DNA of 53,092 bases from positions 1 to 53,092 of the forward strand of contig JAXDQU010000031.1 in assembly GCA_034667685.1 (NCBI GenBank), in the 5' to 3' direction. Below are positions 10,236 through 48,300 of this stretch, piece after piece. The notes beneath the pieces are model-generated. The model worked only from the letters and a program-made list of their open reading frames with translations, was not told where the DNA came from and searched no databases. This stretch comes from Thermoplasmata archaeon (GTDB lineage Archaea; Thermoplasmatota; SW-10-69-26; JACQPN01; JAJPHT01). The position numbers were made by a program, and so were the translations under genes. Numbering within the stretch: position 1 is the first letter of the stretch; each line of letters opens with the position of its first letter.

Positions 10236-10853
10236 ATGACCCGCCCTCCCATCGTGAAGCTGCTGCCCGTGCGCACGCTCGCCCTCCTGGTACTTTGCGC
10301 GCTCCTGCTGCCCGCCCTTCCTACGGCAGTCGCCGACGACACGGGCCGCAGCTTCACGCGGGAAGATACGGGCCGTTGCGGCGACTGGCCGCAATCCCTG
10401 TACCCCCACGGCTGTTACACGCGATCTGAAGCGACGCTCACCGTCACGGATTGCGACTCCGACCATTGCGACTTCACCCTGAGCCAGTCAGGAAACGGAA
10501 CGGCCGCAGCGCCCGGCCTCATGTTCTTTGATCTCATCTACATGCGTGCCGACGATGCGGATGGAAGCCGAACAACCGTGCGATTCTGCTCGGAATTTGA
10601 CGAAGTGGAAGCGCTCTCCGAGAGCCTCGATCCGCAAGACTTCAGTTGCCCATACGTTTGCCACGCCGGCTACGCCGTGGCGCAGGCCTTGGGGTGCAGC
10701 GGCACGATCAAGGACCGCGCGCACATCCCGCCCGGCTATTGTTCCTGGATCCTCGATGGCGCGCAGTTCGAGGATGACTTCATCGAGGTCGCGCAGACTG
10801 ACCCCACCTTCAGGATTTGCCGCGACGCCTCGGGCGCCGTGACGGTCTTCTAG
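10236..10853 (+). CDS. Secreted Cys-rich protein, unknown function
   Basis: Signal peptide ...RTLALLVLCALLLPALPTAVA; about 10 Cys; 3' part of listed ORF 9585..10853. Confidence 0.7.
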   Translation: MTRPPIVKLLPVRTLALLVLCALLLPALPTAVADDTGRSFTREDTGRCGDWPQSLYPHGCYTRSEATLTVTDCDSDHCDFTLSQSGNGTAAAPGLMFFDLIYMRADDADGSRTTVRFCSEFDEVEALSESLDPQDFSCPYVCHAGYAVAQALGCSGTIKDRAHIPPGYCSWILDGAQFEDDFIEVAQTDPTFRICRDASGAVTVF

Positions 10854-32353: not shown

Positions 32354-33790
32354 GTGACGATGAACCTCTGGGCGTACCTGGTGCGGCGGCTGGTCCTGGC
32401 GATCCCCGTCATCGTGGGCGTCACGATCCTCACGTTCGGCATCTCGTGGGAAGCCAACCAGGGCGACATGGCGCGCGCGTACATCAGCGCGAAGATGACG
32501 CCCGAGCAGGTCGAGGAGATCCGCGTCTCCCACGGCTTCGACAAGCCGTTCTACGTCCAGTATCTCACGTACCTCAAGGGGCTCGTGAAGGGGGACCTGG
32601 GCCTCTCGCGCACGCAGGGCGACCTGCCCATCTCCCAGGTGTTCAAGGCGTTCTTCCCCGCGACGCTCGAGCTGACCATCGTCGCGGTCATCCTCGCCGT
32701 GGTGGGCGGCGTGTTCTTCGGCACGCTCTCCGCGGTGCGGAAGGACCGGCCCATCGACCACGCCACGCGCGTCTTCGCGTTGGCCGGCGTGAGCGTGCCC
32801 ATCTTCTGGCTGGGCCTGATCCTCAAGTTCATCTTCGCCACGACCTACCCGAAGGACCTCTTCGACTCGTCGGGCCCCGTGATCCGCGGCGTCTTCCTCG
32901 CGCTCGTGGTGGGCGTGCCCCTCGCGGTGGGCCTCTTCGTGGCGGACGGCCTCGACCCGCGGCACCTCACGTGGAGGCGCCTGGCGGTGCACCTCGCCAT
33001 CCTCGCCGCGATGCTCGGCCTCCTCGCGCTCCTCCACTGGTGGTTCGCGCTGATGGTCCTGGGCGGCATCGCGCTCGTCGCGTACGTCACCGCGCTCGCC
33101 ATGCGCCTCGCGGGGCGCGGCCGCGTCCCGGGCCGCGTGGTGCAGGTCGTGCTCGGCCTCGCGCTCGTCGCGGTCGTCGCGCTCACCCTCGCGGGCCAGG
33201 CGCCCAGCATCGTGGACCCGGTGCTCCAGCAGGTGCCGCAGATGCCGCTGGGCGGCCGCATCAGCAACGAGATCCTCAACCCGCCCGAGGCGCATCCCTC
33301 CGTGACTCACGGCAGGACCGGCTTCCTCCTCGTCGACACCGTCCTCGCGCGCGACTGGGTGGCGCTGGGCGACGTCGTCATGCACCTGATCCTGCCCGCG
33401 ATCACGCTGGGCTACTTCTCGCTCGCCATCATCACGCGCATCATGCGCGCGAGCATGCTCGACGTGCTCCAGCTCGACTTCGTGCGGACCGCGCGCGCCA
33501 AGGGGCTGCCCGAGCGCGAGGTCGTCCGCGCGCACGCGCGCCGCAACGCATTGATCCCCATCGCGACCGTGATCGGCCTGACCTTCGGCAGCCTGCTGGG
33601 CGGCGCCGTCCTGACCGAGACGATCTTCCAGTGGCCGGGCCTGGGCCGGTGGAGCACGCAGGCCATCGGCGCGGGCGACGCGCAGAGCATCATGGCCTTC
33701 ACGCTCTTCGTGGTCATCGTCTACCTCGTCGTGAACTTCGTCGTCGACGTCGTCTACAGCCTGATCGACCCGAGGGTGAGGCTCTCATGA
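32354..33790 (+). CDS. dppB: Peptide ABC permease OppB/DppB with a hydrophobic insertion
   Basis: YLVRRL, GDLGLS, PATLEL, PIFWLG, DFVRTARAKGL, HARRNA, ETIFQWPGLG, IDPRV. Confidence 0.92.
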   Translation: MTMNLWAYLVRRLVLAIPVIVGVTILTFGISWEANQGDMARAYISAKMTPEQVEEIRVSHGFDKPFYVQYLTYLKGLVKGDLGLSRTQGDLPISQVFKAFFPATLELTIVAVILAVVGGVFFGTLSAVRKDRPIDHATRVFALAGVSVPIFWLGLILKFIFATTYPKDLFDSSGPVIRGVFLALVVGVPLAVGLFVADGLDPRHLTWRRLAVHLAILAAMLGLLALLHWWFALMVLGGIALVAYVTALAMRLAGRGRVPGRVVQVVLGLALVAVVALTLAGQAPSIVDPVLQQVPQMPLGGRISNEILNPPEAHPSVTHGRTGFLLVDTVLARDWVALGDVVMHLILPAITLGYFSLAIITRIMRASMLDVLQLDFVRTARAKGLPEREVVRAHARRNALIPIATVIGLTFGSLLGGAVLTETIFQWPGLGRWSTQAIGAGDAQSIMAFTLFVVIVYLVVNFVVDVVYSLIDPRVRLS

Positions 33791-34803
33791 CGACGCTCAC
33801 CGGCCCCACGCCGCCGGAGCTCACCGAGGCGCCCGCCTCGCCGCAGCCCGCGCGCGGCCTGCGCTATCTCTGGTACCGCACGCGCTCCAGCCCGCTCACC
33901 ATCGCCGGCGCGGTCATCATCCTGCTCTACCTCGTCGTCGCCCTCTGCGCGCCGCTCCTGGCGCCCGTGCCCGCCGAGCAGCGCGGCAATCCCTACTCGC
34001 CGGTGGGCCACGAGGGCGAGGACGTGCTCCCCGCGCCGTGGTTCACGACGCAGCTCGATCCCACGCCCTGCACCGCGCAGTGGCCCGTGCCCGTCGTGGG
34101 CTGGTTCAACCACGCGACGATGCAATGCCCGCTGGGCACGAGCAACCACGGCGCGGACGTCTACTACGGCATCGTCTGGGGCGCGCGCATCAGCGTGCTC
34201 ATGGGCGTGGGCGTCACGGCGACCGGCGTCGTCGTGGGCATGATCCTCGGCCTCATCGCCGGCTGGTACGGCGGCTGGATCGACGAGCTGCTCCTGCGCA
34301 TCACCGACATCTTCCTCTCGCTGCCGCTCCTGGTGCTCGCGATCGCCGTCATCGTCGCGCTGCACAACCCGAGCCTCCTGTCGGTGGGCCTCGCGCTCGC
34401 GGTCGTCTGGTGGCCCACGTACACGCGCCTCGTGCGCGGCCAGGTGCTCGCCATCCGCGAGTCGCAGTACGTCGAGGCCGCGCGTGCCTCCGGGCTGCCC
34501 GACTGGTACATCATGGTCCGGCACGTCGCGCCCAACACGCTCTCGCCCGTCGTCGTGCAGGCGACGCTGGACATCGGGAGCGTGGTGCTCATCGCGGCCT
34601 CGCTCTCCTTCATCGGATTCACGAGCAACTCGCCGCTCCTGCCCGAATGGGGGCGCCTCGTCGCGCTCGGGCAGGAGTACATCGCGACGGGCCAGTGGTG
34701 GACCGTCGTCTTCCCGGGCCTCGCGATCTTCGGCTTCGTCCTCGGGTTCAACCTCCTGGGCGACGGGCTGCGCGACGTGCTCGATCCGCGGGGGGCGCGC
34801 TGA
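33787..34803 (+). CDS. dppC: Peptide ABC permease OppC/DppC
   Basis: PLGTSNHGAD, GARIS, YVEAARASG, PEWG, FNLLGDGLRDVLDPR; ATGA coupling with dppB. Confidence 0.92.
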   Translation: MTTLTGPTPPELTEAPASPQPARGLRYLWYRTRSSPLTIAGAVIILLYLVVALCAPLLAPVPAEQRGNPYSPVGHEGEDVLPAPWFTTQLDPTPCTAQWPVPVVGWFNHATMQCPLGTSNHGADVYYGIVWGARISVLMGVGVTATGVVVGMILGLIAGWYGGWIDELLLRITDIFLSLPLLVLAIAVIVALHNPSLLSVGLALAVVWWPTYTRLVRGQVLAIRESQYVEAARASGLPDWYIMVRHVAPNTLSPVVVQATLDIGSVVLIAASLSFIGFTSNSPLLPEWGRLVALGQEYIATGQWWTVVFPGLAIFGFVLGFNLLGDGLRDVLDPRGAR

Positions 34804-35913
34804 GTGGCGCCCGAGGACGCCGTCCTGGAGATCCGGGACCTCGCGCTCAACTTCAAGACGTACGGGGGCGACGTGCAGGCGCTCGAAGGCGTCGACCTCG
34901 AGCTGCTCCGCAACGAGACGCTCGGCCTCGTGGGCGAGTCGGGCTGCGGGAAGACCGTGACCGCGATGAGCGTCATGCGCCTGATCTCGACGCCGCCCGC
35001 GCACTACCTGCGCGGCAGGATCCTCTTCAAGCCCTCCGCCGACCCGGCGACGCACGTCGACCTGCTGGAGGCGGACGCGGAGGCCATGTCGAGCATCCGC
35101 GGCAACCAGATCGGCATGATCTTCCAGGAGCCGATGACGTCGCTCAACCCCGTCATGCCGCTGGGCAAGCAGCTTCGCGAGGTGCTGCTCCAGCACGACT
35201 CCGTGGGCCGGCCCATCACGTCCATCGAGCGGTGGCTGGAGCGCCGCGGCCTCCGCGTCACCTCGCGCGTGCGCGAGCGCCACCGCCTCGCCAACGCGCG
35301 CTCCGTCGAGACCCTGCGCCGCATCGGCATCGCGGACCCCGAGGAGATGCTCGGGCGCTATCCCCACGAGCTTTCCGGCGGCATGCGCCAGCGCATCATG
35401 ATCGCGATGGCGCTCTCGTGCAAGCCGCACCTGCTCATCGCCGACGAGCCCACCACCGCGCTGGACGTCACCATCCAGGCGCAGATCATGGACCTGATGA
35501 AGGAGCTCAAGCGCGAGGAGGAGGCGAGCATCCTCCTGATCACGCACCACCTGGGCCTCGTGGCCGAGATGTGCGACCGCGTCGCGGTGATGTACGCGGG
35601 CGCCGTCGTCGAGAAGGGCACGACCCATGATATCTTCCACGAGCCGCGCCACCCGTACACGGTGGGCCTCTTGCGCGCGATCCCGAAGCTCACCGGCGAG
35701 CGCCACGACCTGCCCGTGATCCCGGGGCGCATCCCCGACCTCATCCGCCCGCCCGCAGGGTGCCGCTTCCATCCGCGCTGCCCGTACGCGATGGTCGAGT
35801 GCACGCAGGCCCGGCCGCCGCTCTACGAGCTGGGGAACGGGCACCGCGTCGCGTGCGTGCTCTACGACGGCCAGCACGAGGTCCCCGCGGCGCTCCTGGA
35901 GGCGCGCCCGTGA
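34804..35913 (+). CDS. dppD: Peptide ABC ATPase OppD/DppD
   Basis: [42 protein letters not shown]. Confidence 0.95.
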
Positions 35914-36938
35914 GCGACGCCGGGTGGCTCGTGGAGGCGCGCGACCTGCGCAAGGAGTTCCCGATCCGCGGCGGCTTCGTCTCGCGCACCGTCGCCAGCG
36001 TGCACGCGGTCGACGGCGTCTCGTTCGGCGTGCGCGAGGGGCAGACGCTCGGCCTCGTGGGCGAGAGCGGCTGCGGCAAGACCACCGTGGGCCGGACGCT
36101 CGTGCGCCTCACCGACGCGACGGGCGGCCGGATCCTCTACCGCGGAAAAGATATCACGAACCTGCGCGGGGGCGAGCTTCGCGCGCTGCGGCGGAAGATC
36201 CAGATCGTCTTCCAGGACCCGCAGTCGAGCCTCAACCCACGCATGCGCGTGCGCGACATCATCGCGGAGCCGCTGCGCTTCACCGCCGGCAAGTCGCGCA
36301 AGGAGGCGCGCGCCAAGGTGCTCGACCTCCTGGAGCGCGTCGGCCTCAAGCCCGACCACGCGGAGCGTTACCCGCACGAGTTCTCCGGGGGCCAGCGCCA
36401 GCGCATCGGCATCGCGCGCGCCCTCGCGACGGACCCCGAGTTCGTCATCCTCGACGAGCCCACGAGCGCGCTCGACGTCTCCGTGCAGGCGCGCCTCCTG
36501 AACCTGCTGCGGCAGCTCCAGGACGAGCTGAAGCTCACGTACCTCTTCATCAGCCACGACCTCAGCGTCATCCGCTACATGTGCGACGAGGTCGCCGTGA
36601 TGTACCTGGGCCGCATCGTGGAGCGCGCGCCGGTGGACGACCTCTTCGCCAACCCGCAGCACCCCTACACGCAGGCTTTGCTATCGGCCGTCCCGCTGCC
36701 CGATCCCGACACGAAGGCGAAGCGCATCATCCTGACCGGCGACGTGCCCAGCCCCGTCAACCCGCCGCAGGCGTGCCGGTTCCACCCGCGCTGCCCGCGC
36801 GCCCAGGCCGTCTGCCACGAGATCGACCCGCCCCTGGAGCCCAAGCGCCCGAACCACCTCGCCGCGTGCCACTTCCCCGGCCCCCAGGAGAAGTGGCCCA
36901 CCACGCAGACGCGCGAGGTCAAGCTCAGCCAGGAATAG
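35910..36938 (+). CDS. dppF: Peptide ABC ATPase OppF/DppF
   Basis: [44 protein letters not shown] coupling with dppD. Confidence 0.95.
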
Positions 36939-38220
36939 GCTGCAGCGTGGCGCTCCAGGTCGCGCTCGTCGAGGCGGGTCCGTCCGCGTCCGTCGCGTCG
37001 GACGCGATGCGCAGCGCGACCGTCGCGCCGGCTCCCACGAAGATCACGCCCGCGGCGCGGCAGCTCGTCTGGGGTCCCCACACGCTGCACGAGAGTCCCG
37101 TGGAAGACCCGTCGACGTCCACGGTGAAGGTCCAGTGGTGGACGCCGCCGCCCGTCGCGTTGCCCGGCGGCGCCGCGAGGTGGACGAACAGGCCGCTGAG
37201 GTTGCCCATGGGGAAGGGCGTCGCGACGTCGCTCTCGCGGGTCGTGGGCGACGCGAACGCGCCGAACGCCCCGAACTGCGGGACGCCCGCCGCGCCGGTC
37301 ATGGGCGACGCGCCGGTGCCGCCGCCGAGCATGGTCCCGCCCTGCGGGCCGCTCGATCCCTGCGGACCTTGCGCGCCCTGCTGACCCACAGGTCCCTGCG
37401 GCCCTGCGGGCCCCTGCGGTCCAGCCGGGCCTTGCGGGCCGGCCGTCCCGTTCACGCCTTGCGGGCCCGCGGGACCCTGGGGGCCGGCTGGACCCTTGGC
37501 GCCTTGCGCGCCGGGGGCGCCGGCAGGTCCCTGCGGGCCGGCGGGACCTTGCGCGCCAGCGGGCCCCGAGGGACCGGCCGCCCCGTCGGCGCCGGCCGGC
37601 CCGGCAGGACCTTGGGGTCCCACGGCGCCCGCAGGCCCCTGTGGACCGGCCGGGCCTTGCGTTCCAGCGGGTCCCTGCGGACCGGCTGCGCCGTCCGCGC
37701 CTGCGGGACCCGTCGGACCGGCGGGCCCGGGAAGACCGTCCGCCCCGGGGGCGCCCTGTGCGCCAGCCAGCCCCTGCAGACCCGCGGGTCCCTGCGGTCC
37801 TTGGGGCCCGGTGGCGCCGGCCGGGCCTTGCGGGCCGGCTGCGCCATCGCTCCCCCGCGGTCCGGCGGGTCCCTGCGGGCCCGCGGGACCTTGTGGGCCG
37901 GCCGTTCCGTTCACGCCCTGCGGGCCCGCGGGACCCGGGACGCCGCAGCCGGTCTGGTTCGCGAGGCACACGACGCGCCCCCCGAACGTGAGCGCCCCGC
38001 CCGCGGACGCCCCGAGCGCGCCCCCGTCGAAGACGAGGTGGCGGGGACCGAGGGCGAGATCGCCCGTCACGTTGTCGCCGCCCACGCGGACCCACGGCTC
38101 GGGGTGGTCGGGAGCCGAGAGCGGAGCGGAGGGCGCGGCGAGGCCATGGCCGACGTCGATCGTGGCGCCGGCGGCGAACGCCAGGATCGCCACGAGGGCG
38201 ATGGTGGTGGTGGAAGCCAT
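36925..38220 (-). CDS. Secreted collagen-like protein
   Basis: N-terminal hydrophobic signal, about 67 uninterrupted Gly-X-Y triplets, C-terminal beta-rich globular domain with a Cys pair. Confidence 0.9.
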
Positions 38221-38321
38221 CGGCAGGTCGAGATGCGGGACCCTCAAGAAGGTGGGCAAGCCGTGGCTTGCGCGCTCCCGCCCACGTCAACGGATATGAG
38301 CCGCGAGCCCGGTGGAGGCGC

Positions 38322-39026
38322 GTGGAAGCCGACCCCGTCGCGCAGCAGGACGGCGCGCTCGCGCGGGCGCTCGAAGCGCTCGCCAGCGTGCCGCGCCTCT
38401 CCCTTCTGCGCCAGCTCCAGACGCCCCGGATCCTCCGCGAGATCCGCGTGCGCTCCAGCGCGGACGACGACCGCGCGGGGAGCATCTCGCGCCAGGCGAT
38501 CCGCGAGCACCTCGACAGGCTCCTGGAGATCGGCGTCATCCACGCGCGCGAAACCGAGCGCGACCACGGGGGGACGATCGAGTACATGATCAACCACCAG
38601 GCGCTCTTCGCGCTCGCGGAGGAGTTCCGGGCGCTCGCGAAGCTGAAGCCCCACGAGGAGCCCAACGCCGAGACGGTGCGCGCGCCCGCGCCCTCGCGCC
38701 CGGCGGAGGTCGCGGGACCCTCCCTCGTGCTGGTGCACGGCCTCGACGAAGGACGAAGGTTCGACCTGACGCCCGGGCCCTCGCGCCAGACGTGGACCAT
38801 CGGGCGGCGCCGCGGCACGGACGTGCCGATCGACTTCGATCCCTTCGCGAGCAGCCACCACGCGCGGATCGACTGGCGCGACGGGGCGCACTGGCTCACC
38901 GACCTCGAGGACAGCCGCAACGGGACGACGCTCAACTTCCGCGAGATCCCGAAGGCGACGCCCGTCCGGCTCGCCCCGGCTGATATCATCGGCGTGGGCC
39001 GGACCCTGTTCGTGTTCAGGGCGTGA
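38322..39026 (+). CDS. ArsR-like wHTH fused to an FHA domain
   Basis: LEALASVPRLSLL...ISRQAIREHLDRLLEIGVI; FHA motifs TIGRR, ASSHHA, DSRNGT, DIIGVG; GGAGG before the GTG. Confidence 0.88.
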   Translation: MEADPVAQQDGALARALEALASVPRLSLLRQLQTPRILREIRVRSSADDDRAGSISRQAIREHLDRLLEIGVIHARETERDHGGTIEYMINHQALFALAEEFRALAKLKPHEEPNAETVRAPAPSRPAEVAGPSLVLVHGLDEGRRFDLTPGPSRQTWTIGRRRGTDVPIDFDPFASSHHARIDWRDGAHWLTDLEDSRNGTTLNFREIPKATPVRLAPADIIGVGRTLFVFRA

Positions 39027-40830
39027 GCGTGGCCTGGCGCAGCGCCGCGCGCATGGCGCCCGCGTCCGGATAGCGCTGGAGCGGATCGTCCGCCGTGGCC
39101 TTCTCGACGATCGCGACGAGGGCCGGCGGGAGCGGCGGGACCGCGATCGCCCGCAGGAGGCGCCCCGCCGCGTAGACGTCGGTCGCGGGCGTGACGGGCT
39201 CTCCGCGCCGCTGCTCGGGCGCCATGAAGGCGGGCGTTCCCGCGAAGACGCCGGGGTCGTGGAAGCCCGCGGTCGTGGACTCGCGCAGCCACGCGATGCC
39301 GAAGTCGGCGACCTTGGGCGAGCCGTCGGCCGCGACGAGGACGTTCGCCGCCTTGAGGTCGCGGTGGACGATCCCGCGCGCATGCGCCGCCTCGAGCCCG
39401 GCGAGGACGCCCTCGAGCATGCGGACCGCCTCGCCCGCCTCGAGGGGCGCGCGCTCCGCGAGGGTGCCGCCCGGGACGTGCTCCATGACGAGCACGGAGC
39501 TTCCCAGGAGCGGAAGGACGTCGTGCACGACGACCACGTTGGGGTGCGCGATCTGGCCCGCCGCCCTGGCCTCGCGCACGCCCCGGGCGTCCGCGTCCTC
39601 CGCCACCTCCTTGAGCACCACGGCCCGGTCGATCCGCGAGTCCTGGGCGAGGAACGCGTGCCCCTCGCCGCCGCGGCCGATGCGCCGGACGACGCGATAA
39701 CGCTCGGCCAGCACGGCGCCTTCGCGCAGCGGGCCTTCCTCGGCGGCCGCGCCGGGCGAGGCGCCCGGGATCCCGTACGCGCGGCTCGCCACCGCGTCGA
39801 GGAAGGCGCGGAACGCCTGCGAGGCCGCCACCGCGAGGCCGAGGACGACCGCGTCGATCAGCGTGAACGATCCCGAGCCGGGGAGCGTCACCTGCACGAG
39901 GAAGAGGAGGAACGCGACGGCGCCGAACGTCGAGATGCCCAGGAGCACGCGCGCCGCCCGCCGCCGCCGGACGACGCCCATGTCGAGCACGTCGTGGCGA
40001 AGGACCGCCGTGGATGCGAGCGCCCCCACGATCAGCCAGCGCACCGACGCCGTCCCCTTCCCGAGCGCGAGCGCCCAGGGCGGCGCGGCCCCGCCCCCCA
40101 ACGCCGCCTGGATCAAGGTGGGCGCGAGCGTCGTGGAGAGCGTGACGAGGACGCCGGCAAGGGGACCCACGAGCCGGTAGGCGCGCGAGGAGGGCGCCAG
40201 CGCGAGGAGCGCCGCGGCCGCGAGGGTCGCGACGACGCCGATGGGCAGCCCCGGCAGCGTCGTGGGATCGCGGATCGCGGCTCCGGCGAGGTCGTACGCC
40301 GCGGCGCTCCAGAGGGGAATCGCGGCGACGCACATCGCCACGAAGAGCGGCGCGATGGCGCGGTCCGGGGGGCTCCCGCGCAGCCGCCGCGCGAGCGTGA
40401 ACGCGACGAACGAGTAGACCAGCGTGGCCTCGACCAGCGGCAGGTAGTTCGGGGCGTCGAACGCGCCGCCGACCTTGGCGCGCGAGAGCTCGACGACGAC
40501 CACGACCGCGGCCACGGCGCGGAGCGCCCATGCGCCGGCCCGCCAGGCTCGGCGCCGCCCGAGGAGCTCGGCCGCCAGCGCGAGCAGGACGACCGGATCG
40601 AGCGCCGAGCAGATCGAAGCGGCCTTCAAGAGAAGAAGCGGATCGAGGGGCGGTGGGGCCAGCGCCCGCGCCGTCTCGAACGCCTGGTTGAGGAAGATCA
40701 GCCCGAGGAAGAACGCCAGGAGACGGCCCGCGCGTCGCTGGCGCGCGCCCACGAGCGCGAGCAGCGCGAACGCGCCGGTCACGATCGCGGCGGCGGCCTT
40801 CAGGAAGACGTCGAGGGCCACGCTTGCCAC
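39016..40830 (-). CDS. Multi-pass membrane Hanks-type Ser/Thr protein kinase
   Basis: About 11 hydrophobic segments, then IGRGGEG, VVLK, REA, HPNV, HRDLKAANVL, DFG, GTPAFMAPE, DVYAAG. Confidence 0.92.
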   Translation of the reverse strand: MASVALDVFLKAAAAIVTGAFALLALVGARQRRAGRLLAFFLGLIFLNQAFETARALAPPPLDPLLLLKAASICSALDPVVLLALAAELLGRRRAWRAGAWALRAVAAVVVVVELSRAKVGGAFDAPNYLPLVEATLVYSFVAFTLARRLRGSPPDRAIAPLFVAMCVAAIPLWSAAAYDLAGAAIRDPTTLPGLPIGVVATLAAAALLALAPSSRAYRLVGPLAGVLVTLSTTLAPTLIQAALGGGAAPPWALALGKGTASVRWLIVGALASTAVLRHDVLDMGVVRRRRAARVLLGISTFGAVAFLLFLVQVTLPGSGSFTLIDAVVLGLAVAASQAFRAFLDAVASRAYGIPGASPGAAAEEGPLREGAVLAERYRVVRRIGRGGEGHAFLAQDSRIDRAVVLKEVAEDADARGVREARAAGQIAHPNVVVVHDVLPLLGSSVLVMEHVPGGTLAERAPLEAGEAVRMLEGVLAGLEAAHARGIVHRDLKAANVLVAADGSPKVADFGIAWLRESTTAGFHDPGVFAGTPAFMAPEQRRGEPVTPATDVYAAGRLLRAIAVPPLPPALVAIVEKATADDPLQRYPDAGAMRAALRQATLTP

Positions 40831-40872
40831 AGCCGGCCTCGCGTCATCAAGCTTTTCGGGCCACGCCCGGCC

Positions 40873-41163
40873 TCAGAGCCCGCCGTCGCAGTCGGGACCC
40901 GCGTCGGAGTTCACGAACACGCCGGTGCACGCGTGCGCGCCGTCGTTGTAGACCCCCACGCACGCGTAGGGAGGCACGCCGCCGGGCACGTACTCCTGCG
41001 CGCCCGTGCACGAGACGGAGCCGGTGTTGTTCGAGAAGACGCCCACGCAGGCGTAGCTCACGGCGCTCACCTGGACGCCGGCGCACCCGGCGGCGGAGGC
41101 GAGACCCGCGAAGGAGACGAAAGCAGTCAGGAGGCTGAGCGTCACGAGGAGGATGGTTCTCAT
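40873..41163 (-). CDS. Small secreted Cys-rich peptide with six CxG motifs
   Basis: Signal peptide MRTILLVTLSLLTAFVSFAGLASA; about 72 aa mature part with CAGV, CVGV, CTGA, CVGV, CTGV, CDGG. Confidence 0.75.
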   Translation of the reverse strand: MRTILLVTLSLLTAFVSFAGLASAAGCAGVQVSAVSYACVGVFSNNTGSVSCTGAQEYVPGGVPPYACVGVYNDGAHACTGVFVNSDAGPDCDGGL

Positions 41164-41315
41164 GGTTCCCACTTGCGCCGAAGCGCGCACGGTAACACAC
41201 CCCTTCCCCGCAAAGAGTTGGGCAAGCTTGGGCTTGCGCGTCGACGGGACCTTCCGGCCGATCGCGCGGCGCGGGGGATCGCAACCCCCAAGAGGAGGCA
41301 CGCCTAGGCCGATCC

Positions 41316-42233
41316 GTGCGCCGCGCCGCGCTGCTGCTTGTCCTCGTCGCCCTGAGCGGGTGCACGCACGCGGGCGCCCCGCCCCTCCTCGGGGGCACGC
41401 CCACGCCCACCGACGCGACGCCCGGGAGCGACCCGCGCTTCCCGCCGCTGCGCTTCGGTGGCACGGTCCTCGATGCGCTCAGCGGCCAGGCGCTCGACGA
41501 CGCCACCGTGATCCTCGACCTCGCGGCCACCGCGCCCTGCCGCAACGAAGGCATCCTCTGGCAGCAGTCGAACGTGCCCACCACGGGCCTCGACGGCCGC
41601 TTCGGCCCGCACGTCGCCGAGCGCCCGCGCACCAACGACTTCGCCTACTTCCTCCACGTCACCGCGCCCGGCTACGCGGAGAACGTCACGTTCATCGGCC
41701 CCGCCGAAGCGCAAGGCGACCTGGGCAACCTCACCATCGTCCTGCACCCCGACCGCAGCGTCAGCGGCACCGCGCCGCCTGGCACCGTCGTCGCCCTCGA
41801 CGCGCCCGGCTTCCCCCGCCTCGCCGCCGCCGACGCCAACGGCACCTTCGAGATCGACCACGCCCGCGTCCTCCCCGCCTCCTTCGTCGCGGACCTCGAC
41901 GAACCCTACCTGGACACCCTCGCCGCCCCCGCCAACCTCACCCTCGCCGCGCCCGCTGGCAACGCCACCGGCTGGCCGCTCCAAGGCACCGTCCGCGGCC
42001 CCGGCGGCGCCGCGCTCGTCGCGGACGTCGTCGCGCGCAACCACAACGGCACGCTGATCGGCGCGGCTCGATCCTCCGACGACGGGCTGTTCACCATGTG
42101 GGTGCCGCGGACGCCTGGTGATATCACGCTGCAGGCGCGGACCGCCGATGGGCACTACGGGGCTTCCCTGCCGACGACGTTGAATGGGGCTCCTGCCACG
42201 CGGTTTGGGTTGGTGGCAAGGGCGTTGTGCTGA
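41316..42233 (+). CDS. Lipoprotein with carboxypeptidase-regulatory-like (prealbumin-fold) repeats
   Basis: Lipobox LSGC; GTVLDALSGQALDDATV, TGLDGRF, VTAPGY, ADANGTF, SSDDGLF. Confidence 0.8.
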   Translation: MRRAALLLVLVALSGCTHAGAPPLLGGTPTPTDATPGSDPRFPPLRFGGTVLDALSGQALDDATVILDLAATAPCRNEGILWQQSNVPTTGLDGRFGPHVAERPRTNDFAYFLHVTAPGYAENVTFIGPAEAQGDLGNLTIVLHPDRSVSGTAPPGTVVALDAPGFPRLAAADANGTFEIDHARVLPASFVADLDEPYLDTLAAPANLTLAAPAGNATGWPLQGTVRGPGGAALVADVVARNHNGTLIGAARSSDDGLFTMWVPRTPGDITLQARTADGHYGASLPTTLNGAPATRFGLVARALC

Positions 42234-42368
42234 GAGGGGAGAGGCGACGGTGCTCTCGCCAAAACGTCAACGGCCTCGACACGCCACCGGCATGCGTTGG
42301 CATGGCGTGTGCAGTGGCGGGGTTGCATTCCGGCAATCGTTCTATGGGAATCATCCCTGCGGCGAACG

Positions 42369-43397
42369 ATGAAAACGCCTCAGATCATCCTCGTTGCGTG
42401 CCTCGTCGCGCTACCCATCCTGGCCGGACTCCCCCTTGCGAGCGCCGCATCTTCGTCCTGCCGTGCATCTTCTGGCAATGATGCCGCCCCACAACCCTGC
42501 ACGTTCGATTGCGCATTCGGAGAAACAATTGTCGTGACGGTCGACACCTGGGACCTTGCTCCCGCAACCGGGACTGCTCAGTGTGGAACATCGACAGCAA
42601 CCTGCTCCGCGCAATCCCCCGATGAAACGGAGAGGAACTGCACGGGCTCGAGCCTCCCGACCCTGGCCGCGGGGACTGGCGTCTGTAGCGTGAGCGTTCC
42701 AAGCGACATCTACAAGGGTAACTACGTGACGTGCAGCACGACGACTGGCCTGATACTCCAGGTCCCTTCCGAGTCAGTCGGTATTGGCGAGCAGTCGACG
42801 CCCGCGGTAGGTGGCGACACCATCACGGTCTATCCAGGAGGCAGCACGCCCGCAATCGACCCGATTGCGTCTCCTGGAGTGGGGATTCCCGCGACATGCA
42901 CGGTCAATGTGTGCGACAACCCGACGCCCTATGGCCCCATCGTGGTTCCGACCGTCGGGAAAACGTGCGCCCCTCTGAACGTCGTCTGCTTGGGCCCGAC
43001 CGACCCAGTCACCGTGCTTCCCTCCGGCTCGGTCCCTCCGGCTTGCGCAGTGCTCGGCCCCGCCTGCATTCCGGCTGGCCCTGAAATCATCCCTTCCGAC
43101 ATCGTCGAGACGCCCGCGATCCCGTCGGTTCCCATTTCCCCCGTGCAAACCCAGGAACCTGCCCTTGGGCCCCAGTTGACTCCCGGCGTAGTCGTCTACG
43201 TCAACAGCACCCCCATCCCCGTGACGCCACCCTCGACGTCGCCAAGCACGATCGGCCCGTACCCCGTCTTGGGCCCACCCGTTCCGATCACGCTGTGCGA
43301 TCCGAATTGTAGCGTCCCCGTCACAATCGGCGGCGGGGCCGTTGAGGTTGCGGCGAGCGTTGCTGGGCGCAACGTCGACTACTGGTTCACCGTGTAG
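42369..43397 (+). CDS. Secreted Cys/Pro/Thr-rich protein (atypical codon usage)
   Basis: Signal peptide; more than a dozen Cys in pairs; Pro-rich C-terminal half; many A/T-ending codons. Confidence 0.72.
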   Translation: MKTPQIILVACLVALPILAGLPLASAASSSCRASSGNDAAPQPCTFDCAFGETIVVTVDTWDLAPATGTAQCGTSTATCSAQSPDETERNCTGSSLPTLAAGTGVCSVSVPSDIYKGNYVTCSTTTGLILQVPSESVGIGEQSTPAVGGDTITVYPGGSTPAIDPIASPGVGIPATCTVNVCDNPTPYGPIVVPTVGKTCAPLNVVCLGPTDPVTVLPSGSVPPACAVLGPACIPAGPEIIPSDIVETPAIPSVPISPVQTQEPALGPQLTPGVVVYVNSTPIPVTPPSTSPSTIGPYPVLGPPVPITLCDPNCSVPVTIGGGAVEVAASVAGRNVDYWFTV

Positions 43398-43427
43398 TCC
43401 AAGCGAGAGGAAACCGACCGCGGCCCA

Positions 43428-43527
43428 TCACCGGCTCGAACTCCACCGTCCGGTCACGTAGACGTCCATGAGCCGGTTGAGCAGCTCGTCGTAGGTCTCG
43501 CCTTTCTTGCCGAGCGACCGGAGCCGG
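43428..43527 (-). pseudogene. Degenerate copy of the 3' part of the small gene at 45006..45155
   Basis: About 95% identical to 45011..45111 (4 substitutions, 1-bp deletion); the 5' end is missing. Confidence 0.8.
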
Positions 43528-43898
43528 AGCGGCGCCTTCCGCGCCCTTGTCCTCCCGCGCCGCGCGTGACCCTCTTCACGGTCGTCTTCCGAAAGAAGCG
43601 CAATGGCGACTACGACGTCGCGATCCAGCCCACGACAAGCGCATCGCGGCGCAAGGGCCACCGCTGGACGGATACCTCGGCCGCGGATGACGAGGTGGCG
43701 AAACGGCTCGTGGCGATGGCGCGGGCGCTGTGCTGAGGGTGAAAACGAAAACTCGCGTCGATCCCGCATTTGCACGCGCGAGACTCAAGCTCGCTTCGCG
43801 AAAACAGTGCTCAACCGAGCCTTGTGTCTAACGCAACCTATAATGCTGAACGCCTCGGGTTCTGCCGCGCCCGAACCTGTCGGGCGGGTGTAAGTGAA

Positions 43899-44894
43899 AT
43901 GAGACCAGTCCTCGTCCTCCTCGTGATCGCGGGATCAACAATTGCATTCGCAGGCACGACCAAGGCGGCTGGCCTTCAGACGCTCTGCTCGAATGAGGGA
44001 CCCATTGACACGAACGGCCCCAACTCGGCATCGGGGACTCTTTGGACATGCGACTTCGACGTTCAGGCCGGCGGTGTTGTGGATGTCAGCTATCTCTACT
44101 GCTACGATGCCGCCACCCATGGCAGGATCGCCTCCATTACAACATATGCGCGAATGGATGGCACGCCTGTGATGGTCGACACTCTGCCATTCACCACCCC
44201 CTACTCGGGGGATGGCTCGTGTACCGTGGATGACCCGAGCACATACGCGCTGCATACCTTCGTTGTGCCAGCCGTCGCCTTCGACGAGTTCCAATGGACA
44301 TACACGAACGGCGACTACGGAATCTCAGTTGCCAACATCCAGGTCATGGGCGTTGCTGCGCCCGGGGTCGACGCACCAACAGGCGTCAAGTCCTGCCAAG
44401 TCTACAACCAGGAGTATTCCCCCTCGCCCTATCCGGGTCAGGACAATGGCTTCGTGGTCGAGAACAATCCTTCCGGACCAGAGGGGGATCAGGCATTCTG
44501 CTTCGGAGCCGCCACCGGCGCACCGTGCCAGCCTGGCGAACCTGGCGTCATCTTCGATAATGCACCGATATGCCTTGCAGATCCATGCCCGCAATCGATT
44601 GATCCGAACACGGTCGCGGCTTGCGGTGTCGGTCCCGAATGTCCCTCGGGCCTAACGAGCCCACCGGCTCCTGGCCAACTCCTCGTCGTATGTGGAAAAG
44701 CCGTCTCCGGTTGCAGCTTGAGCGGCGCGGGTCCCGGCCCGGGCTGGGGCATCGGCGCAGCGGGGGTCTGTATCGGTCTTCCCTGGGTGGAACAAGGTGC
44801 TGCGCCTTGCCCAGGCGCGACGATCAATGAGCGCGTCTTTTGGGGGACGACTCCCGGCTTCGCGCCAGGGAGCACCACGGATGTCTGCGTCTAG
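43899..44894 (+). CDS. Secreted Cys-rich protein (atypical codon usage)
   Basis: Signal peptide MRPVLVLLVIAGSTIAFAGTTKA; about 16 Cys; CTATAAT about 55 nt upstream. Confidence 0.75.
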   Translation: MRPVLVLLVIAGSTIAFAGTTKAAGLQTLCSNEGPIDTNGPNSASGTLWTCDFDVQAGGVVDVSYLYCYDAATHGRIASITTYARMDGTPVMVDTLPFTTPYSGDGSCTVDDPSTYALHTFVVPAVAFDEFQWTYTNGDYGISVANIQVMGVAAPGVDAPTGVKSCQVYNQEYSPSPYPGQDNGFVVENNPSGPEGDQAFCFGAATGAPCQPGEPGVIFDNAPICLADPCPQSIDPNTVAACGVGPECPSGLTSPPAPGQLLVVCGKAVSGCSLSGAGPGPGWGIGAAGVCIGLPWVEQGAAPCPGATINERVFWGTTPGFAPGSTTDVCV

Positions 44895-45005: not shown

Positions 45006-45155
45006 CTACTTCACGGGCTCGAACTCCACCGTCCGGTTCACGTAGACGTCCATGAGCCGGTTGAGCAGCTCATCGTAGGTCTCTCCTTTCTTGCCGAGCG
45101 ACCGGAGGCGGTCGCGTGTCGCCTTGGTCAGCGGAATCGTGGTGATGTCGCCCAA
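45006..45155 (-). CDS. Small RHH-like/antitoxin-like DNA-binding protein
   Basis: TTIPLTKATRDRLRSLGKKGETYDELLNRLM matches the archaeal TTI...TxxxL...GETYDxxxxRL small-protein pattern; TTG start inferred. Confidence 0.75.
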   Translation of the reverse strand: MGDITTIPLTKATRDRLRSLGKKGETYDELLNRLMDVYVNRTVEFEPVK

Positions 45156-45324
45156 CCAGGGCACCTTCCAGGGGAACAGGCAGGCTTTGACAGTTATGAG
45201 TTTCGATAAGAGCCTCATCACGACGGGCTGTCGGAGTGGCAGTTCGGTTCAAAAGCCACTCCGGAAGCTTGAATACGTCCCGTCTCTTCGAGCCGAAGCA
45301 TACCCCACGCGGGGAGGTTGCCGC

Positions 45325-48300
45325 ATGCTTGGACGCCGGTCGATGGCATTCGTGTTCGCTGGACTCATGCTCGGTTCGGCACTGGCTTTGATCACCCCCC
45401 CCTCAGGTGCGGCGCCGGGCGACAACGGCCCTCCGTCAAAGGGTGGATGGATCGAATCCGCGACGGCGACGCCGTCGTGCAACAATCCCTGCCGCCACGC
45501 TGTCGACGGCCCGAACACCTACAACATCGCGAAGATTGGGGACACGATTTCGACGACGGTCAGCGGCTGGGTAACCAGTGACGGCTGCACACCTCAGAGC
45601 GGCGTTGCTCCGAGTGTGTTCGTAGACGTTGACTTCACTGCAGTCGACGGCTCCCATACAAACCAGACGGCATCGACCACGGCGAACTCGACCACGAATC
45701 CGTTTGACACGGCAGGTTACACGTTCACCGCGACGATTTCCCATCAGCTTCTTCCCGCGAATCTTGACACAGTCGGAACGGCGAACCCGCTCGTCACGAT
45801 TCCGCTGGGCCTCTTCGTTCGATGTGGTGGGAGCCTTGCGCCCGTCGGTTCATTCACCATGAACCGCACCGCGACGTCTGGGGCCCCCATCGTCATCGAC
45901 GTCACGCCCCCGACCACCGCCTTCACGTTGGCCACCACCGGCACCGGCGGGTTCGGCACCACGACGTTCTCGATCACGGGCCCCACGGTCTTCGCGAAGA
46001 ACCCCGTCGAGAGCGTGACGTTCGACCTCTCCCAGATCAACAGCGCGATCGGCACGATCACCACGGGTGGCACGCTCACTCAGATCCAGCAGAATCTCAC
46101 GAAGTACTTCACCAACAACGTCACGACGAACACGGGCGTTCCCTTCCCGAAGGCTGCGATCACCGTCACCGACACGTCGGGCAACGTCCTCCCTGCGGAC
46201 GTGACCTACGTGGGCCACGCGCTGGACCTCAAGGCGCCTGGGAATTTCCCCGGGCCCCTGGCGCTTGACCGCGCGGCGCCGCCCGGCATAAACATCACCT
46301 ACCAGGTCCCCACGGGCTCTGAGTACACGAACCTCAGCGTGAATCTAACCGACATCACGCTCGGGGCGAGCTATCTCGTCGAGTGCGACTACCAATGGGT
46401 CGTCACGACGTTCGCAGACGGCTGCGGCCTCGTCGTGAACGCCACGAGCCAGGCCAACAAGTCCGTCGTCTTCGGCCTCCGCCCCACGGCCATGCTGCCG
46501 CTGATGCCCGACCATGTCTACCAGGCGACCGTCGCGCTCCATGACGGCGTCAACAACTCCAACGCCTGGACGCAGACCGGCACCGTCCACACCTGGCCCA
46601 ATCCGACGGCCAGCGTCGAGGTCCTCCTGCCTCCTGGCAAGACGGTGGCCGCCGTGGGCGACACGGTCACGCTCGTTCCGATCCCCTCGTCGATCTCGGG
46701 CACGAACCACGACACGTACAAGATCGTCGCCGACACGAGCGCGTTCTCCTCGCAGACCTCGCCGTTCTGGATCTGGACCGCGTCGACGAACTCGTGGAAC
46801 TACACGACGCCCGCGACGGTGACCATCCAGAACACAAGCTTCTCGCGCAGCGTCAGCGCGAGCGTGCTGCCCATCCCGCTCTACGGCAACACGACGTTCG
46901 GGTACGGCAACGTCGTCGACGCCAACGGCAATCCCTTCGCCGTCTTCCCCATCGATCCCCGCGCTCCCGACGTCATCACGAATGAGAAGCTCACGCCGCT
47001 CACGGGCGGCGCGATCAAGGTCGAGTTCACGCCGCCAGCGGACGCGGACGTCGACCACTACGTGCTACACGCGGTCGACACGACCACGAACACGCCGATC
47101 AACGCGGACCAGTCGTGCGCGGCGTCGGGCTGCACGTGGACGCACGCGCCCGACGACCACGTCTATCAGATCTCGGTCGCGGGCGTCGACACGGCCGGAA
47201 ACCAGGGCCAGTTCAACACGAACCCGCCCTCGGCGCCCAGCAGCGCGAACCCGGACGCGCTCCTTGTCACGACGCCGCAGGGCACGTACAGCCTGCCGCC
47301 GGTCGTGGCGGGCACGTGGTCCGGCGCGACGATTCCCGCCGGCACGACGAACCTGACGATGACGTTCCAGAGCGCGCCGAACAACACGGCGCAGCCCGGC
47401 AAGTACTGGACCGCGCAGAGCGGCGCCGCGGCGTGGTCGAGCAGCCCCTATGTCTTCTACGGAACGCTCCAGGCCAACGGCCAGTTCTCCGTCGACAACT
47501 TCACGCGGCAGGCCAACGCCTCCGCGCTCGCGAGCCTTCCCGAGGGCTTCTACAACGTGCAGCTCACGCTGACGGACTCGCCGCACAACATCGCGTTCCC
47601 GGCGACCTTCAGCTACACGCTCAATTACAACGTCGCCGCCCACGTGACGCCCATCGCGGGCGCGGGCAGCCCGCCCGTCATCAAGGGCTTCGGGAACTTC
47701 TCGGGCCCCTGGACCGGCAGCGTCGTCCCTGCGACGACCGACGCGACGAAGTTCCCGACGGGCACGAACGTCACGGTCGCGCTGGTGCGCAACGACACCG
47801 GCGGCACGAAGTACTGGACCGGGGCCGCGCCGACCTCGACGTCGGATCCGTTCACGAGCACGCCGAAGTGGATGGGCGCGTGGGCGTACGCCAGCAACGG
47901 CACGTGGGTCTCGTGGAACCTGACGTCCGGCTTCGGCGCGGAGTCGGCGAACGCGGCGAAGCTGCCCAGCGGGAGCAGCTACGCGTTGGCCGTCCAGATC
48001 CAGGACCCCACGCACGGCATCACGAGCACGGACTTCTATCCGTTCATCCTCGACCGCGACGCGCCCGCGATCGACACGACGGCGACGTCGTTCTCGATCG
48101 TGCCCAGCGCTGCCTCGCCGACCCAGTACATGCAGGGCTTCTCGACCCTCGTCGTGCAGACGAAGGCGACGGACGCAGGCACGGGCCTGACGGGCTTCAC
48201 GTACACCCTCAAGCGCGCGGACGGCAGCGCCGCGCCCACGGTGGCGGGCGGCGTGGCGAGCGTATCGTGCCCCTCGGCGGCCTGCTCGCTCTCGCCGCCG

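Follow-up and report, generated by a model that had tools for sequence, protein, structure and literature searches.

The window, a stretch of 53,092 nt from an uncultured archaeal group, contains a locus that probably encodes a cognate pair, a Hanks-type Ser/Thr kinase and an FHA-domain transcription factor, regulating itself along with variable genes for surface and secreted proteins. We found no paper in the literature that describes such a module. The genes and candidate operators of the locus are listed here.

36925 to 38220, minus strand: collagen-like gene (431 aa from ATG; Pfam Collagen, E 2.5e-29) for a candidate secreted or anchored protein
38256 to 38271, no strand: site 1 of the palindrome GCAAGC-N4-GCTTGC, a candidate operator within the divergent collagen/regulator spacer
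38322 to 39026, plus strand: candidate wHTH-FHA regulator (234 aa from GTG; FHA, E 5.7e-15)
39016 to 40830, minus strand: polytopic Hanks-type Ser/Thr kinase (604 aa; Pkinase, E 1e-31)
40873 to 41163, minus strand: orphan secreted-peptide gene (96-aa precursor, ~72 aa mature; six Cys)
41222 to 41237, no strand: site 2 of the same palindrome, a candidate operator between the peptide gene and the divergent gene at 41316
41316 to 42233, plus strand: gene for a lipoprotein-like secreted protein, divergent from the peptide gene

The preliminary description of this DNA had proposed a signaling module of four genes, and the layout that it gave was reproduced: all four ORFs are present, the convergent regulator and kinase genes overlap by 11 bp at their 3′ ends, the peptide gene stops 42 bp ahead of the kinase start with the peptide upstream and both in the same orientation, and the divergent collagen-like and regulator genes are separated by 101 bp. 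The longest ORF of the regulator starts at 38268. The translated ORF at 41316 has an N-terminal signal peptide that ends in Cys and a weak match to CarboxypepD_reg (Pfam E 2.3e-7, just below the cut-off). Site 2 lies in the spacer between this gene and the peptide gene, and the gene is possibly a further member of the regulon.

The domain assignments for the regulator and the kinase held up as well. As had been claimed, the regulator joins an ArsR-like winged helix to an intact FHA domain. Its FHA domain (PF00498) is identified by profile, by fold, and by the residues that bind pThr (G161, R162, S177, N200, G201, and T202), which are invariant in 64 sequences. In the AF2 model (pLDDT 94.5), the top Foldseek matches of this domain are the FHA domains of GarA, OdhI, DgcB, and EmbR, with a TM score to target of up to 0.95 (GarA). 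Judged by these residues the pThr-binding pocket is intact, with actual binding of pThr being putative. The ArsR/SmtB-type winged helix (PF12840, PF01022) is assigned on family evidence and is visible only at that level: by itself, the regulator's own N-terminal domain is below every Pfam HTH threshold, many homologues carry PF12840 (HTH_20), and the family profile matches ArsR-family chains in the PDB (2oqg, E 1.6e-4; PH1932, 0.0038; NolR, 0.0087). The whole protein has no Cys. Of 129 regulators, 119 have a Thr at one position of the linker between the two domains (T118 here) and four more have Ser there, amid variable flanking residues. A phospho-acceptor accounts for such a lone conserved Thr in a variable linker more readily than a structural residue would, and T118 is the most likely candidate for this role.

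The kinase had been described as carrying about 11 TM segments and all catalytic motifs. In its AF2 model, about 350 aa with 11–12 membrane helices and short loops are followed by a compact catalytic domain, and no sizeable extracellular domain is seen. The Pkinase match is above the cut-off and the core motifs expected of a Hanks-type kinase are complete (Gly-rich loop, VAIK Lys, alpha-C Glu, HRD Asp, Asn, DFG, APE, and subdomain XI Arg), with G387, K407, E420, H489, D491, N496, D509, G511, P538, E539, and R586 invariant in 17 homologous sequences. The C-lobe is short, since only positions 1–189 of the 263 in the Pkinase profile are matched. The membrane domain has no Pfam match of its own at E up to 10; among the 17 homologues, three match HisKA_7TM (best E 2.7e-4) and one matches 7TMR-DISM. 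Compared with a HisKA_7TM cluster in the Atlas, the domain has a features score of 0.90 and structural TM scores of 0.60/0.76, and it may be related to this 7TM-receptor-like family. The further claim that the locus works without His/Asp relays holds for the four proteins, among which Pfam finds no HisKA, HATPase_c, or receiver domain and which therefore fall outside the definition of a two-component system, but not for the genome, where receiver domains have 27 matches elsewhere.

The proposed link between the kinase and the wHTH-FHA regulator extends well beyond this locus. The 3.48-Mb genome has about 11 copies of the pair. A Hanks kinase catalytic domain is encoded no more than about 1.3 kb from 10 of its 11 wHTH-FHA genes, the contigs with these ten pairs carry 10 of its 12 Pfam Pkinase matches, and all eight of its Pfam FHA matches fall inside wHTH-FHA genes. 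PP2C_2, the phosphatase family searched, gave no match in the genome. We sampled 127 loci (about 1.73 Mb) from 21 genomes with 129 unique wHTH-FHA genes, and 88 of these have a kinase within 3 kb, in convergent (45), tandem (36), or divergent (7) orientation. Among the 41 that do not, 19 are less than 3 kb from a contig end, and the other 22 have intact flanks. All 20 genomes sampled from this genome's own class within Thermoplasmatota have the pair, at about 5–16 copies each, and it was found in none of 20 sampled from other classes of the phylum. Within genomes, the identity between regulators correlates with the identity between their partner kinases (r = 0.78, 218 paralogue pairs), whereas shuffled partners give a mean r of 0.155 and none of 2000 shuffles reaches the observed value. 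Kinase and regulator co-diversify, and their pairing is far beyond chance.

The rest of the proposed module does not recur in the same way. The preliminary description expected the small secreted peptide to cluster in related genomes together with the kinase and the regulator; the latter two do, whereas the peptide has no homologue in the 126 other wHTH-FHA loci, and neither have the N- and C-terminal domains of the collagen-like protein. In the two closest orthologous loci the neighbors are different and there is no such peptide. The peptide has a signal-peptide-like N-terminus, all six Cys in a C-x-G context, and strong coding periodicity in its ORF (GC3 0.94 versus 0.72 upstream of the ATG). 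It has no Pfam match, a word-indexed search gave no homologue, and a single, spurious repeat match was returned from 1.84 billion representatives. The collagen-like protein has a hydrophobic N-terminal segment, 68 uninterrupted G-X-Y triplets (residues 93–296, with Pro at X in 40), and a globular C-terminal domain of roughly 125 aa. The long G-X-Y run places it among collagen repeat proteins with a putative triple helix; its C-terminal domain matches no named family and is carried by none of 20 relatives. Because neither gene has homologues in the 126 loci or the 20 relatives, neither of their products belongs to a conserved module, and a conserved four-gene unit is not supported. Our results suggest that the two proteins are cargo specific to this locus, attached to a conserved core, much like the secreted Cys-rich proteins at paralogous pairs. 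Beside pairs, the first kb has 0.084 secreted Cys-rich ORFs per kb, compared with about 0.018 per kb at 2–6 kb.

A shared 16-bp palindrome suggests how the peptide and collagen-like genes could be tied to the pair in this locus. GCAAGC-N4-GCTTGC has three copies in the genome, two of them in promoter regions flanking this pair, and the window has two matches versus a shuffle mean of 0.23, an enrichment that is partly post hoc because the motif was first noticed in these same regions and counted afterwards. Site 1 is 35–51 bp from the collagen ATG and 50–66 bp from the regulator GTG; site 2 is 58–74 bp upstream of the peptide ATG and 78–94 bp upstream of the gene at 41316. Since the palindrome is present in both divergent promoter regions around the pair, we propose that the flanking genes form a regulon, with the collagen-like gene a probable member specific to this locus. 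Related motifs recur near other wHTH-FHA genes. In this genome, GCARG-N6-CYTGC has 24 sites, six of which fall in the 2.3% of the sequence that lies no more than 3.5 kb from such a gene (0.56 expected), compared with 10 of 358 sites for eight control palindromes together (8.4 expected). For GCAGG-N6-CCTGC, 5 of 12 sites are at −75 to −92 of a regulator (0.08 expected), where six controls give 0. Motif sites are non-coding in 27 of 32 cases versus 19 of 122 for controls. At one locus of another genome (G003:C21), one candidate operator is present in three copies: the first ahead of the regulator, the others each ahead of a gene for a secreted protein, of which one is Cys-rich. The motif family is carried by only 5 of the 11 wHTH-FHA loci of this genome, the closest orthologues have different palindromes with one copy each, and regulators show no general excess of palindromes upstream (39 of 127 at −130 to −61 versus 26–36 of 127–129 in other intervals).

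We hypothesize that the membrane domain would perceive a signal at the membrane or cell surface and activate the kinase, which would autophosphorylate an activation-loop Thr and then phosphorylate the regulator, most likely at T118. The FHA domain would read pThr, either in the linker, as in a GarA/OdhI-like switch, or on the kinase, and this reading would alter the binding of an ArsR-type wHTH dimer to GCAAGC-N4-GCTTGC. The regulator would be the palindrome-binding protein and would repress or activate the collagen-like gene and the peptide-kinase operon along with its own gene; the lipoprotein gene at 41316 may also be under its control.

The preliminary description went further, to a linear pathway in which the six-Cys peptide is the ligand of the kinase membrane domain, the FHA regulator relays the signal, and a collagen fiber is the output, which we consider unlikely. 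The peptide gene is directly upstream of the kinase with site 2 ahead of it, and the kinase, like peptide-sensing polytopic kinases, has no sizeable extracellular domain. A Cys-rich secreted ORF is immediately upstream of and co-oriented with 6 of the 88 kinases, three of these ORFs being homologous to one another (G000:C97 and G000:C25, from the genome under study here, and G003:C15), and 6 of the 13 kinase loci in this genome have a Cys-rich secreted ORF within 1.5 kb versus 1.63 at random. However, an upstream, co-oriented ORF of this kind is missing from 82 of the 88 kinases. The peptide itself is an orphan, both among the other loci and in two database searches, and it has no counterpart beside the closest orthologous pairs. 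The cluster shows no gene dedicated to processing or export, and we know of no pheromone like this 72-aa disulfide-rich product. As the palindrome precedes the peptide-kinase operon, a linear pathway would become an autoinducing, quorum-sensing-like loop. Such a circuit of wholly eukaryote-like parts, from peptide to 7TM-like receptor kinase to FHA factor to operon and collagen fiber, is a doubtful reading. If true, the locus would be a self-contained cell-cell or surface-sensing circuit switched through one palindrome, and the ~11 paralogous pairs in each genome would serve as an archaeal equivalent of two-component systems, with secreted cargo recruited separately by each pair.

It is also improbable that the pair alone functions as a unit, with the peptide and collagen-like genes being recent, unrelated neighbors and the palindromes belonging to another regulator or carried in by an insertion. 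The relatives lack both genes, the Atlas look-alikes of the collagen C-terminal domain are mostly phage and collagen-bearing proteins (a lead only), and a stretch at 42–46 kb, 1–2 kb downstream of the cluster, has a GC content of 0.62–0.65 versus about 0.72. The palindrome's third genomic copy precedes a canonical ArsR operon, and the protein that binds the palindrome could therefore be a different one of the ArsR type. Nevertheless, two of only three copies flank this pair, related palindromes recur in other genomes at a fixed spot before paralogous regulators and also ahead of neighboring secreted-protein genes, and the first kb beside pairs holds secreted-protein ORFs at 2–5 times the density found further out. 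We regard as very unlikely a scaffold in which the regulator is not a substrate but is tethered at the membrane through docking of its FHA domain on the autophosphorylated kinase, with the linker Thr playing a structural part. The activation-loop residues T520 and T532 are invariant in the 17 kinase homologues, the FHA pocket is intact, and docking of an FHA protein on its own kinase is known for PknB-GarA (PDB 6i2p, from its title). Against this are the one Thr kept within an otherwise variable linker and the confident modeling of linker residues 101–130 (AF2 block pLDDT means of 87–92).

Several known systems share parts of the proposed cognate kinase/FHA pair and its cargo. Like the collagen-like surface proteins of bacteria and phages (Scl1/Scl2, Lcl, BclA), the collagen-like protein has a long G-X-Y run followed by a globular C-terminal domain, but its host is archaeal and it lacks both LPXTG and a matched head domain. 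Of its sequence, only the repeats align to the NCBIfam Scl and Lcl models, with scores far short of the cut-offs. Two-component systems and the peptide quorum-sensing cassettes ComCDE and Agr offer a further comparison. Common to these systems and the present one are cognate pairs that duplicate and co-diversify, autoregulatory operators (candidates here), and, at this locus, a polytopic kinase gene immediately preceded by a gene for a small secreted peptide. The adjacency and the upstream palindrome fit such a cassette; the orphan peptide and the lack of a visible processing or export gene do not. Unlike in two-component systems, Ser/Thr phosphorylation would be read by an FHA domain, with no histidine kinase or receiver. 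In GarA and OdhI, a pThr outside the FHA domain folds back to bind that domain. These actinobacterial proteins are the best structural matches of the regulator FHA domain (profile E about 1e-10), and the conserved Thr could fold back likewise ('Rv1827 pThr 22', title of 2kfu). However, GarA and OdhI regulate enzymes, lack a DNA-binding domain, and have an N-terminal Thr motif, whereas the Thr here is in the wHTH-FHA linker.

In Sulfolobales, as PMC5007285 describes for ArnA/ArnB, the kinases ArnC/ArnD, and ST0829/ST1565, Hanks kinases phosphorylate an archaeal FHA protein that represses archaellum genes, and thus a surface structure. ArnA is a zinc-finger-FHA protein with the vWA partner ArnB, whereas the regulator is an ArsR-type wHTH protein; without Cys, with a weak ArnA match (5a8i, E 0.095), and with no vWA gene in the cluster, it was not placed in the ArnA family. 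Nor was it placed in the EmbR/SARP-FHA family, as only the FHA domain matches (profile positions 117–229), the N-terminus is ArsR-type, and 234 aa is too short for a BTA domain. To our knowledge, the Arn kinases have no one-to-one pairing with an FHA gene. The EmbR FHA domain of M. tuberculosis reads pThr. The kinase PknH spans the membrane with a single TM helix and carries an extracellular sensor, in contrast to the 11–12 helices and short loops found here. EmbR has a SARP/OmpR-type wHTH and a BTA domain, and PknH/EmbR is unlike the archaeal pair with its multiple copies per genome. Both systems place a membrane Hanks kinase beside a winged-helix regulator with a C-terminal FHA domain (PDB 2fez, 2ff4), and the FHA domains match by fold and by profile (E 4e-6). 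The module is a variant of PknH/EmbR logic.

The four genes described in the preliminary account lie where it placed them. The convergent regulator and kinase overlap by 11 bp at their ends, 42 bp separate the peptide from the kinase, and the divergent collagen/regulator spacer measures 101 bp. The genes and two copies of a palindrome found beside them are as follows.

36925-38220, minus strand: collagen-like gene, 431 aa from the ATG; Pfam Collagen 2.5e-29
38256-38271: GCAAGC-N4-GCTTGC site 1, in the spacer from which the collagen and regulator genes diverge
38322-39026, plus strand: wHTH-FHA regulator, 234 aa; FHA 5.7e-15
39016-40830, minus strand: kinase, 604 aa; Pkinase 1e-31
40873-41163, minus strand: peptide ORF, 96 aa, with a signal-peptide-like N-terminus and six Cys
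41222-41237: GCAAGC-N4-GCTTGC site 2, 58-74 bp upstream of the peptide ATG

The source genome is 3.48 Mb, with a GC content of about 72% and 99% completeness. The 234-aa form of the regulator is an exact entry in a protein collection, and the labels of its named relatives are all Thermoplasmatota or Thermoplasmata archaeon. The collagen-like protein has 68 consecutive G-X-Y triplets without a break, preceded by a hydrophobic N-terminus. In the peptide, every one of the six Cys is followed by x-G; the third-position GC of its ORF is 0.94, as in proven genes, and the periodicity ends upstream of the ATG. The mature form of the peptide is put at residues 25-96, about 72 aa. Neither of two protein collections returned the peptide itself when searched, so the ORF appears to be a small gene that was never called; its coding signal is strong.

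Several neighboring features of the window were also recorded. At 32354-36938 lie genes of an Opp/Dpp-type oligopeptide ABC transporter, coding for one permease and for two ATPases that carry oligo_HPY; they run toward the collagen-like gene, with which they share a 14-bp overlap. On the other side, 42297-44894 encodes two secreted Cys-rich proteins (about 342-366 aa and 374 aa) with zero matches in Pfam and NCBIfam searches, within a stretch of lower GC (0.62-0.65 versus about 0.72 elsewhere). A 2439-aa ORF at 45091-52410 has a hydrophobic segment at each end and a Y_Y_Y domain near its C-terminus as the sole Pfam match above cut-off; its product is probably a giant surface protein.

The part of this arrangement that recurs is the kinase-regulator pair. 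This genome holds 11 full-length copies of the regulator, and in 10 cases a Hanks kinase domain lies no more than about 1.3 kb away. All eight of its Pfam FHA matches fall in wHTH-FHA genes, and 10 of its 12 Pfam Pkinase matches are on the contigs of the ten pairs. Among 41 sampled genomes, on which the range rests, regulator matches occur in 20 of 20 same-class relatives (1-16 each) and in 0 of 20 genomes from other classes of the phylum. Joining the two search tables gave a kinase for at least 85 of 130 wHTH-FHA copies. We then took 116 regions of at most 20 kb around copies in the 20 relatives, together with the 11 loci of this genome (127 loci in all), and counted pairs with HMMs built from the search hits. 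The preliminary description had linked the kinase to the wHTH-FHA protein and proposed looking for their clustering in related genomes; such clustering was found, with a kinase domain within 3 kb of 88 of 129 unique wHTH-FHA genes. With about 13 kinase loci spread over the 3.48-Mb genome, we estimate that a random gene would lie that close to a kinase about 2-3% of the time. The 88 pairs are convergent (45), tandem with the kinase first (20), tandem with the regulator first (16) or divergent (7). For 19 of the 41 regulators with no kinase at this distance, the contig ends less than 3 kb away.

The partners have also diverged together. Within genomes, the identity of paralogous regulators correlates with that of their partner kinases (Pearson r 0.78, 218 paralogue pairs); when partners were shuffled within genomes the mean r was 0.155, and 0 of 2000 shuffles attained 0.78. 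The nearest paralogue was the same for regulator and kinase in 41 of 73 cases. Because the identities correlate in this way, the pairs behave like cognate sensor/regulator pairs that duplicate and diverge as units. On this sampling, a whole class of Thermoplasmatota carries the wHTH-FHA regulator, mostly one-to-one with a polytopic kinase.

The preliminary description had called the FHA domain intact, and in an alignment of 64 regulator homologues its loop residues G161, R162, S177, N200, G201 and T202 are all invariant, with R25, Q58 and H63 of the N-terminal domain likewise kept. The AlphaFold2 model of the regulator is confident (pLDDT 94.5, pTM 0.83), including the linker. With Foldseek, the FHA domains of GarA, OdhI and DgcB came out on top and EmbR lower; FHA matches dominated this search and left the wHTH unresolved, so that domain was identified by the family profile, which matches ArsR-family winged-helix chains (2oqg at 1.6e-4, then PH1932, NolR and HlyU). 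PF12840 is present in many homologues. Within the linker, which is rich in Pro/Ala/Gly/Glu, position 118 (234-aa numbering) is Thr in 119 of 129 family members and Ser in 4. The residues adjacent to it are freely variable; at +3, 69 of 129 members have Leu, Ala or Val. GarA works by a phospho-switch mechanism, and by analogy T118 is likely the phospho-acceptor of a GarA/OdhI-like switch.

For the kinase, the multi-TM architecture with catalytic motifs was also confirmed: every catalytic residue is invariant among 17 aligned homologues, as are T520 and T532 of the activation loop, and the model (pLDDT 77) has 11-12 membrane helices. The loops connecting these helices are short, and therefore the protein has no sizeable extracellular domain. 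An iterated HMM detects the membrane domain in 42 of the 101 kinase ORFs that the fetched loci contain, a few ORFs being counted twice where loci overlap; a word-indexed search with the domain returned itself and one partial match, nothing else. Its Atlas look-alikes point toward HisKA_7TM (features 0.90, structure TM 0.60/0.76). Pfam gives a weak HisKA_7TM match in 3 of the 17 homologues (best E 2.7e-4) and none in the window's own membrane domain, and we regard the resemblance as a lead. Between the membrane and kinase domains, 15 of the aligned homologues share a conserved stretch of about 60 juxtamembrane residues, which the window kinase and the one on contig C21 of the relative G003 lack.

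The preliminary description went further and treated all four genes as a single module. As a conserved unit, this does not hold: by tblastn against the 127 loci, the peptide and the collagen-like protein, the latter queried with its N- and C-terminal parts outside the repeat, match the window itself only, and neither has a further match in this genome. The best 12 orthologous loci yielded a single 27-residue signal-peptide match and nothing more. In two same-genus orthologous loci, whose regulators are 55-58% identical, a thiolase gene lies upstream of the kinase, in one case with a 2-TM protein between them, and the genes upstream of the regulator are unrelated. The peptide had zero matches in a word-indexed search, and its sole match among 1.84 billion representatives, P0123, proved to be a repeat artefact. 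A search of 20 relatives for the collagen C-terminal domain found it in 0 of them. Most of the domain's look-alikes in the Atlas come from phages or bear collagen repeats, a resemblance that we note as a lead. Thus, the peptide and collagen-like genes are not conserved parts of the module. Other long G-X-Y-run ORFs of this genome (C62:17707-19386, C106:78538-80529 and C76:29917-30780) all lack the N- and C-terminal domains of the window's collagen-like protein. A candidate second collagen-like gene, beside the pair on contig C25, encodes a Gly-rich GGxGG protein, not a G-X-Y collagen.

What the pairs share is a tendency toward exported neighbors. Within 1 kb of the 88 pairs, secreted Cys-rich ORFs have a density of 0.084 per kb versus about 0.018 at 2-6 kb, and other secreted-like ORFs at 0.52 versus about 0.25. 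In an all-ORF scan of this genome, a secreted Cys-rich ORF lies within 1.5 kb of 6 of 13 kinase loci, compared with 1.63 for random placements (P about 0.0025). A co-oriented ORF of this kind stands immediately upstream of only 6 of 88 kinases. From these densities and the few upstream peptides, we conclude that pairs tend to adjoin variable exported-protein genes and that no particular peptide belongs to the module. Homologous 8-Cys secreted proteins are encoded at C97:9698-10279 (plus strand, 193 aa) and C25:64463-64984 (minus strand, 173 aa) of this genome, both ending CPPP-x-CC, and in locus L092 of G003 (contig C15, 196 aa); in each case the next gene downstream, in the same orientation, encodes a polytopic kinase that has a wHTH-FHA partner gene.

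In this locus, the peptide and collagen-like genes are tied to the pair by a candidate operator, as read from the sequence. The 6+4+6 palindrome was detected by script; a general repeat search of the spacer, at its settings, reported no inverted repeat. Site 2 also lies 78-94 bp upstream of a divergent lipoprotein-like gene at 41316. Shuffles of the window averaged 0.23 matches, with 3 of 100 attaining 2. Genome-wide there are three sites, and a reversed control pattern has zero. The third and only other copy (C8:42754-42769) is upstream of an operon for an SRPBCC-like protein and a canonical ArsR-family regulator.

Because the motif was noticed before counting, the figures for it are in part post hoc. 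Of 12 GCAGG-N6-CCTGC sites in the 127 loci, 5 fall at -75 to -92 of the regulator's wHTH anchor, where 0.08 are expected by area, and the relaxed GCARG-N6-CYTGC places 7 of 26 sites there, the window included. Six control palindromes place 0 in that interval. Coding periodicity is lacking at 27 of 32 unique motif sites versus 19 of 122 control sites. Across this whole genome, 6 of 24 motif sites are no more than 3.5 kb away from a regulator gene (0.56 expected from 2.3% of the genome), compared with 10 of 358 sites of control palindromes (8.4 expected). Palindromes in general show no significant enrichment upstream of regulators; this specific motif family alone is enriched. Neighboring genes are given for hand-checked cases only, the automated neighbor table being noisy. 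On contig C97, a site lies ~70-80 bp before the gene immediately upstream of the kinase, which encodes a Cys-rich secreted protein. Contig C21 of G003 (locus L049) carries GCAGGG-N4-CCCTGC three times, at 10377, 11236 and 12351; there the 16-mer precedes the regulator, a 14-Cys secreted protein gene (~85 bp) and an 86-aa secreted protein gene (~42 bp).

We propose, as the most likely reading, that the pair consists of a receptor kinase and a dedicated transcription factor that reads pThr. The kinase would phosphorylate the regulator, and the FHA domain would read the pThr. The transcription factor would then autoregulate through the palindromic candidate operator and control adjoining surface or secreted genes through the same element; we infer both which protein binds the operator and in which direction it regulates. 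Here, the regulon would comprise the gene for the collagen-like protein, the operon of peptide and kinase, and possibly the lipoprotein gene. From its position, the peptide is a possible ligand. The preliminary description set this pathway apart from His/Asp relays, which it does not replace genome-wide: with about 27 receiver domains in the genome, the system acts beside them. A search of this genome for the PP2C_2 phosphatase family found none.

To our knowledge, the only archaeal FHA proteins studied are the ArnA family of Thermoprotei, and very little is known of routes from archaeal Ser/Thr kinases to gene expression. With a candidate operator and a candidate phospho-site, a simple archaeal receptor-kinase-to-transcription-factor pathway therefore becomes testable in vitro. 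In the available excerpts, FHA proteins are missing from most archaeal genomes analysed (PMC6509490), and the ArnA/ST0829 family alone is described among archaeal FHA proteins (PMC5007285, PMC6509490). Searches of full-text literature yielded no ArsR-FHA regulator paired with kinases in Thermoplasmatota. The pairs co-diversify much as histidine kinase/response regulator pairs do. The ArnA network is a more distant likeness in logic; the regulator falls outside it by its DNA-binding and accessory domains, and ArnA matches the regulator family profile weakly (E 0.095). PknH/EmbR has its logic in common with the pair. DNA-binding and accessory domains exclude the regulator from the EmbR family, and EmbR-like logic would have had an independent origin here, with a different DNA-binding domain.
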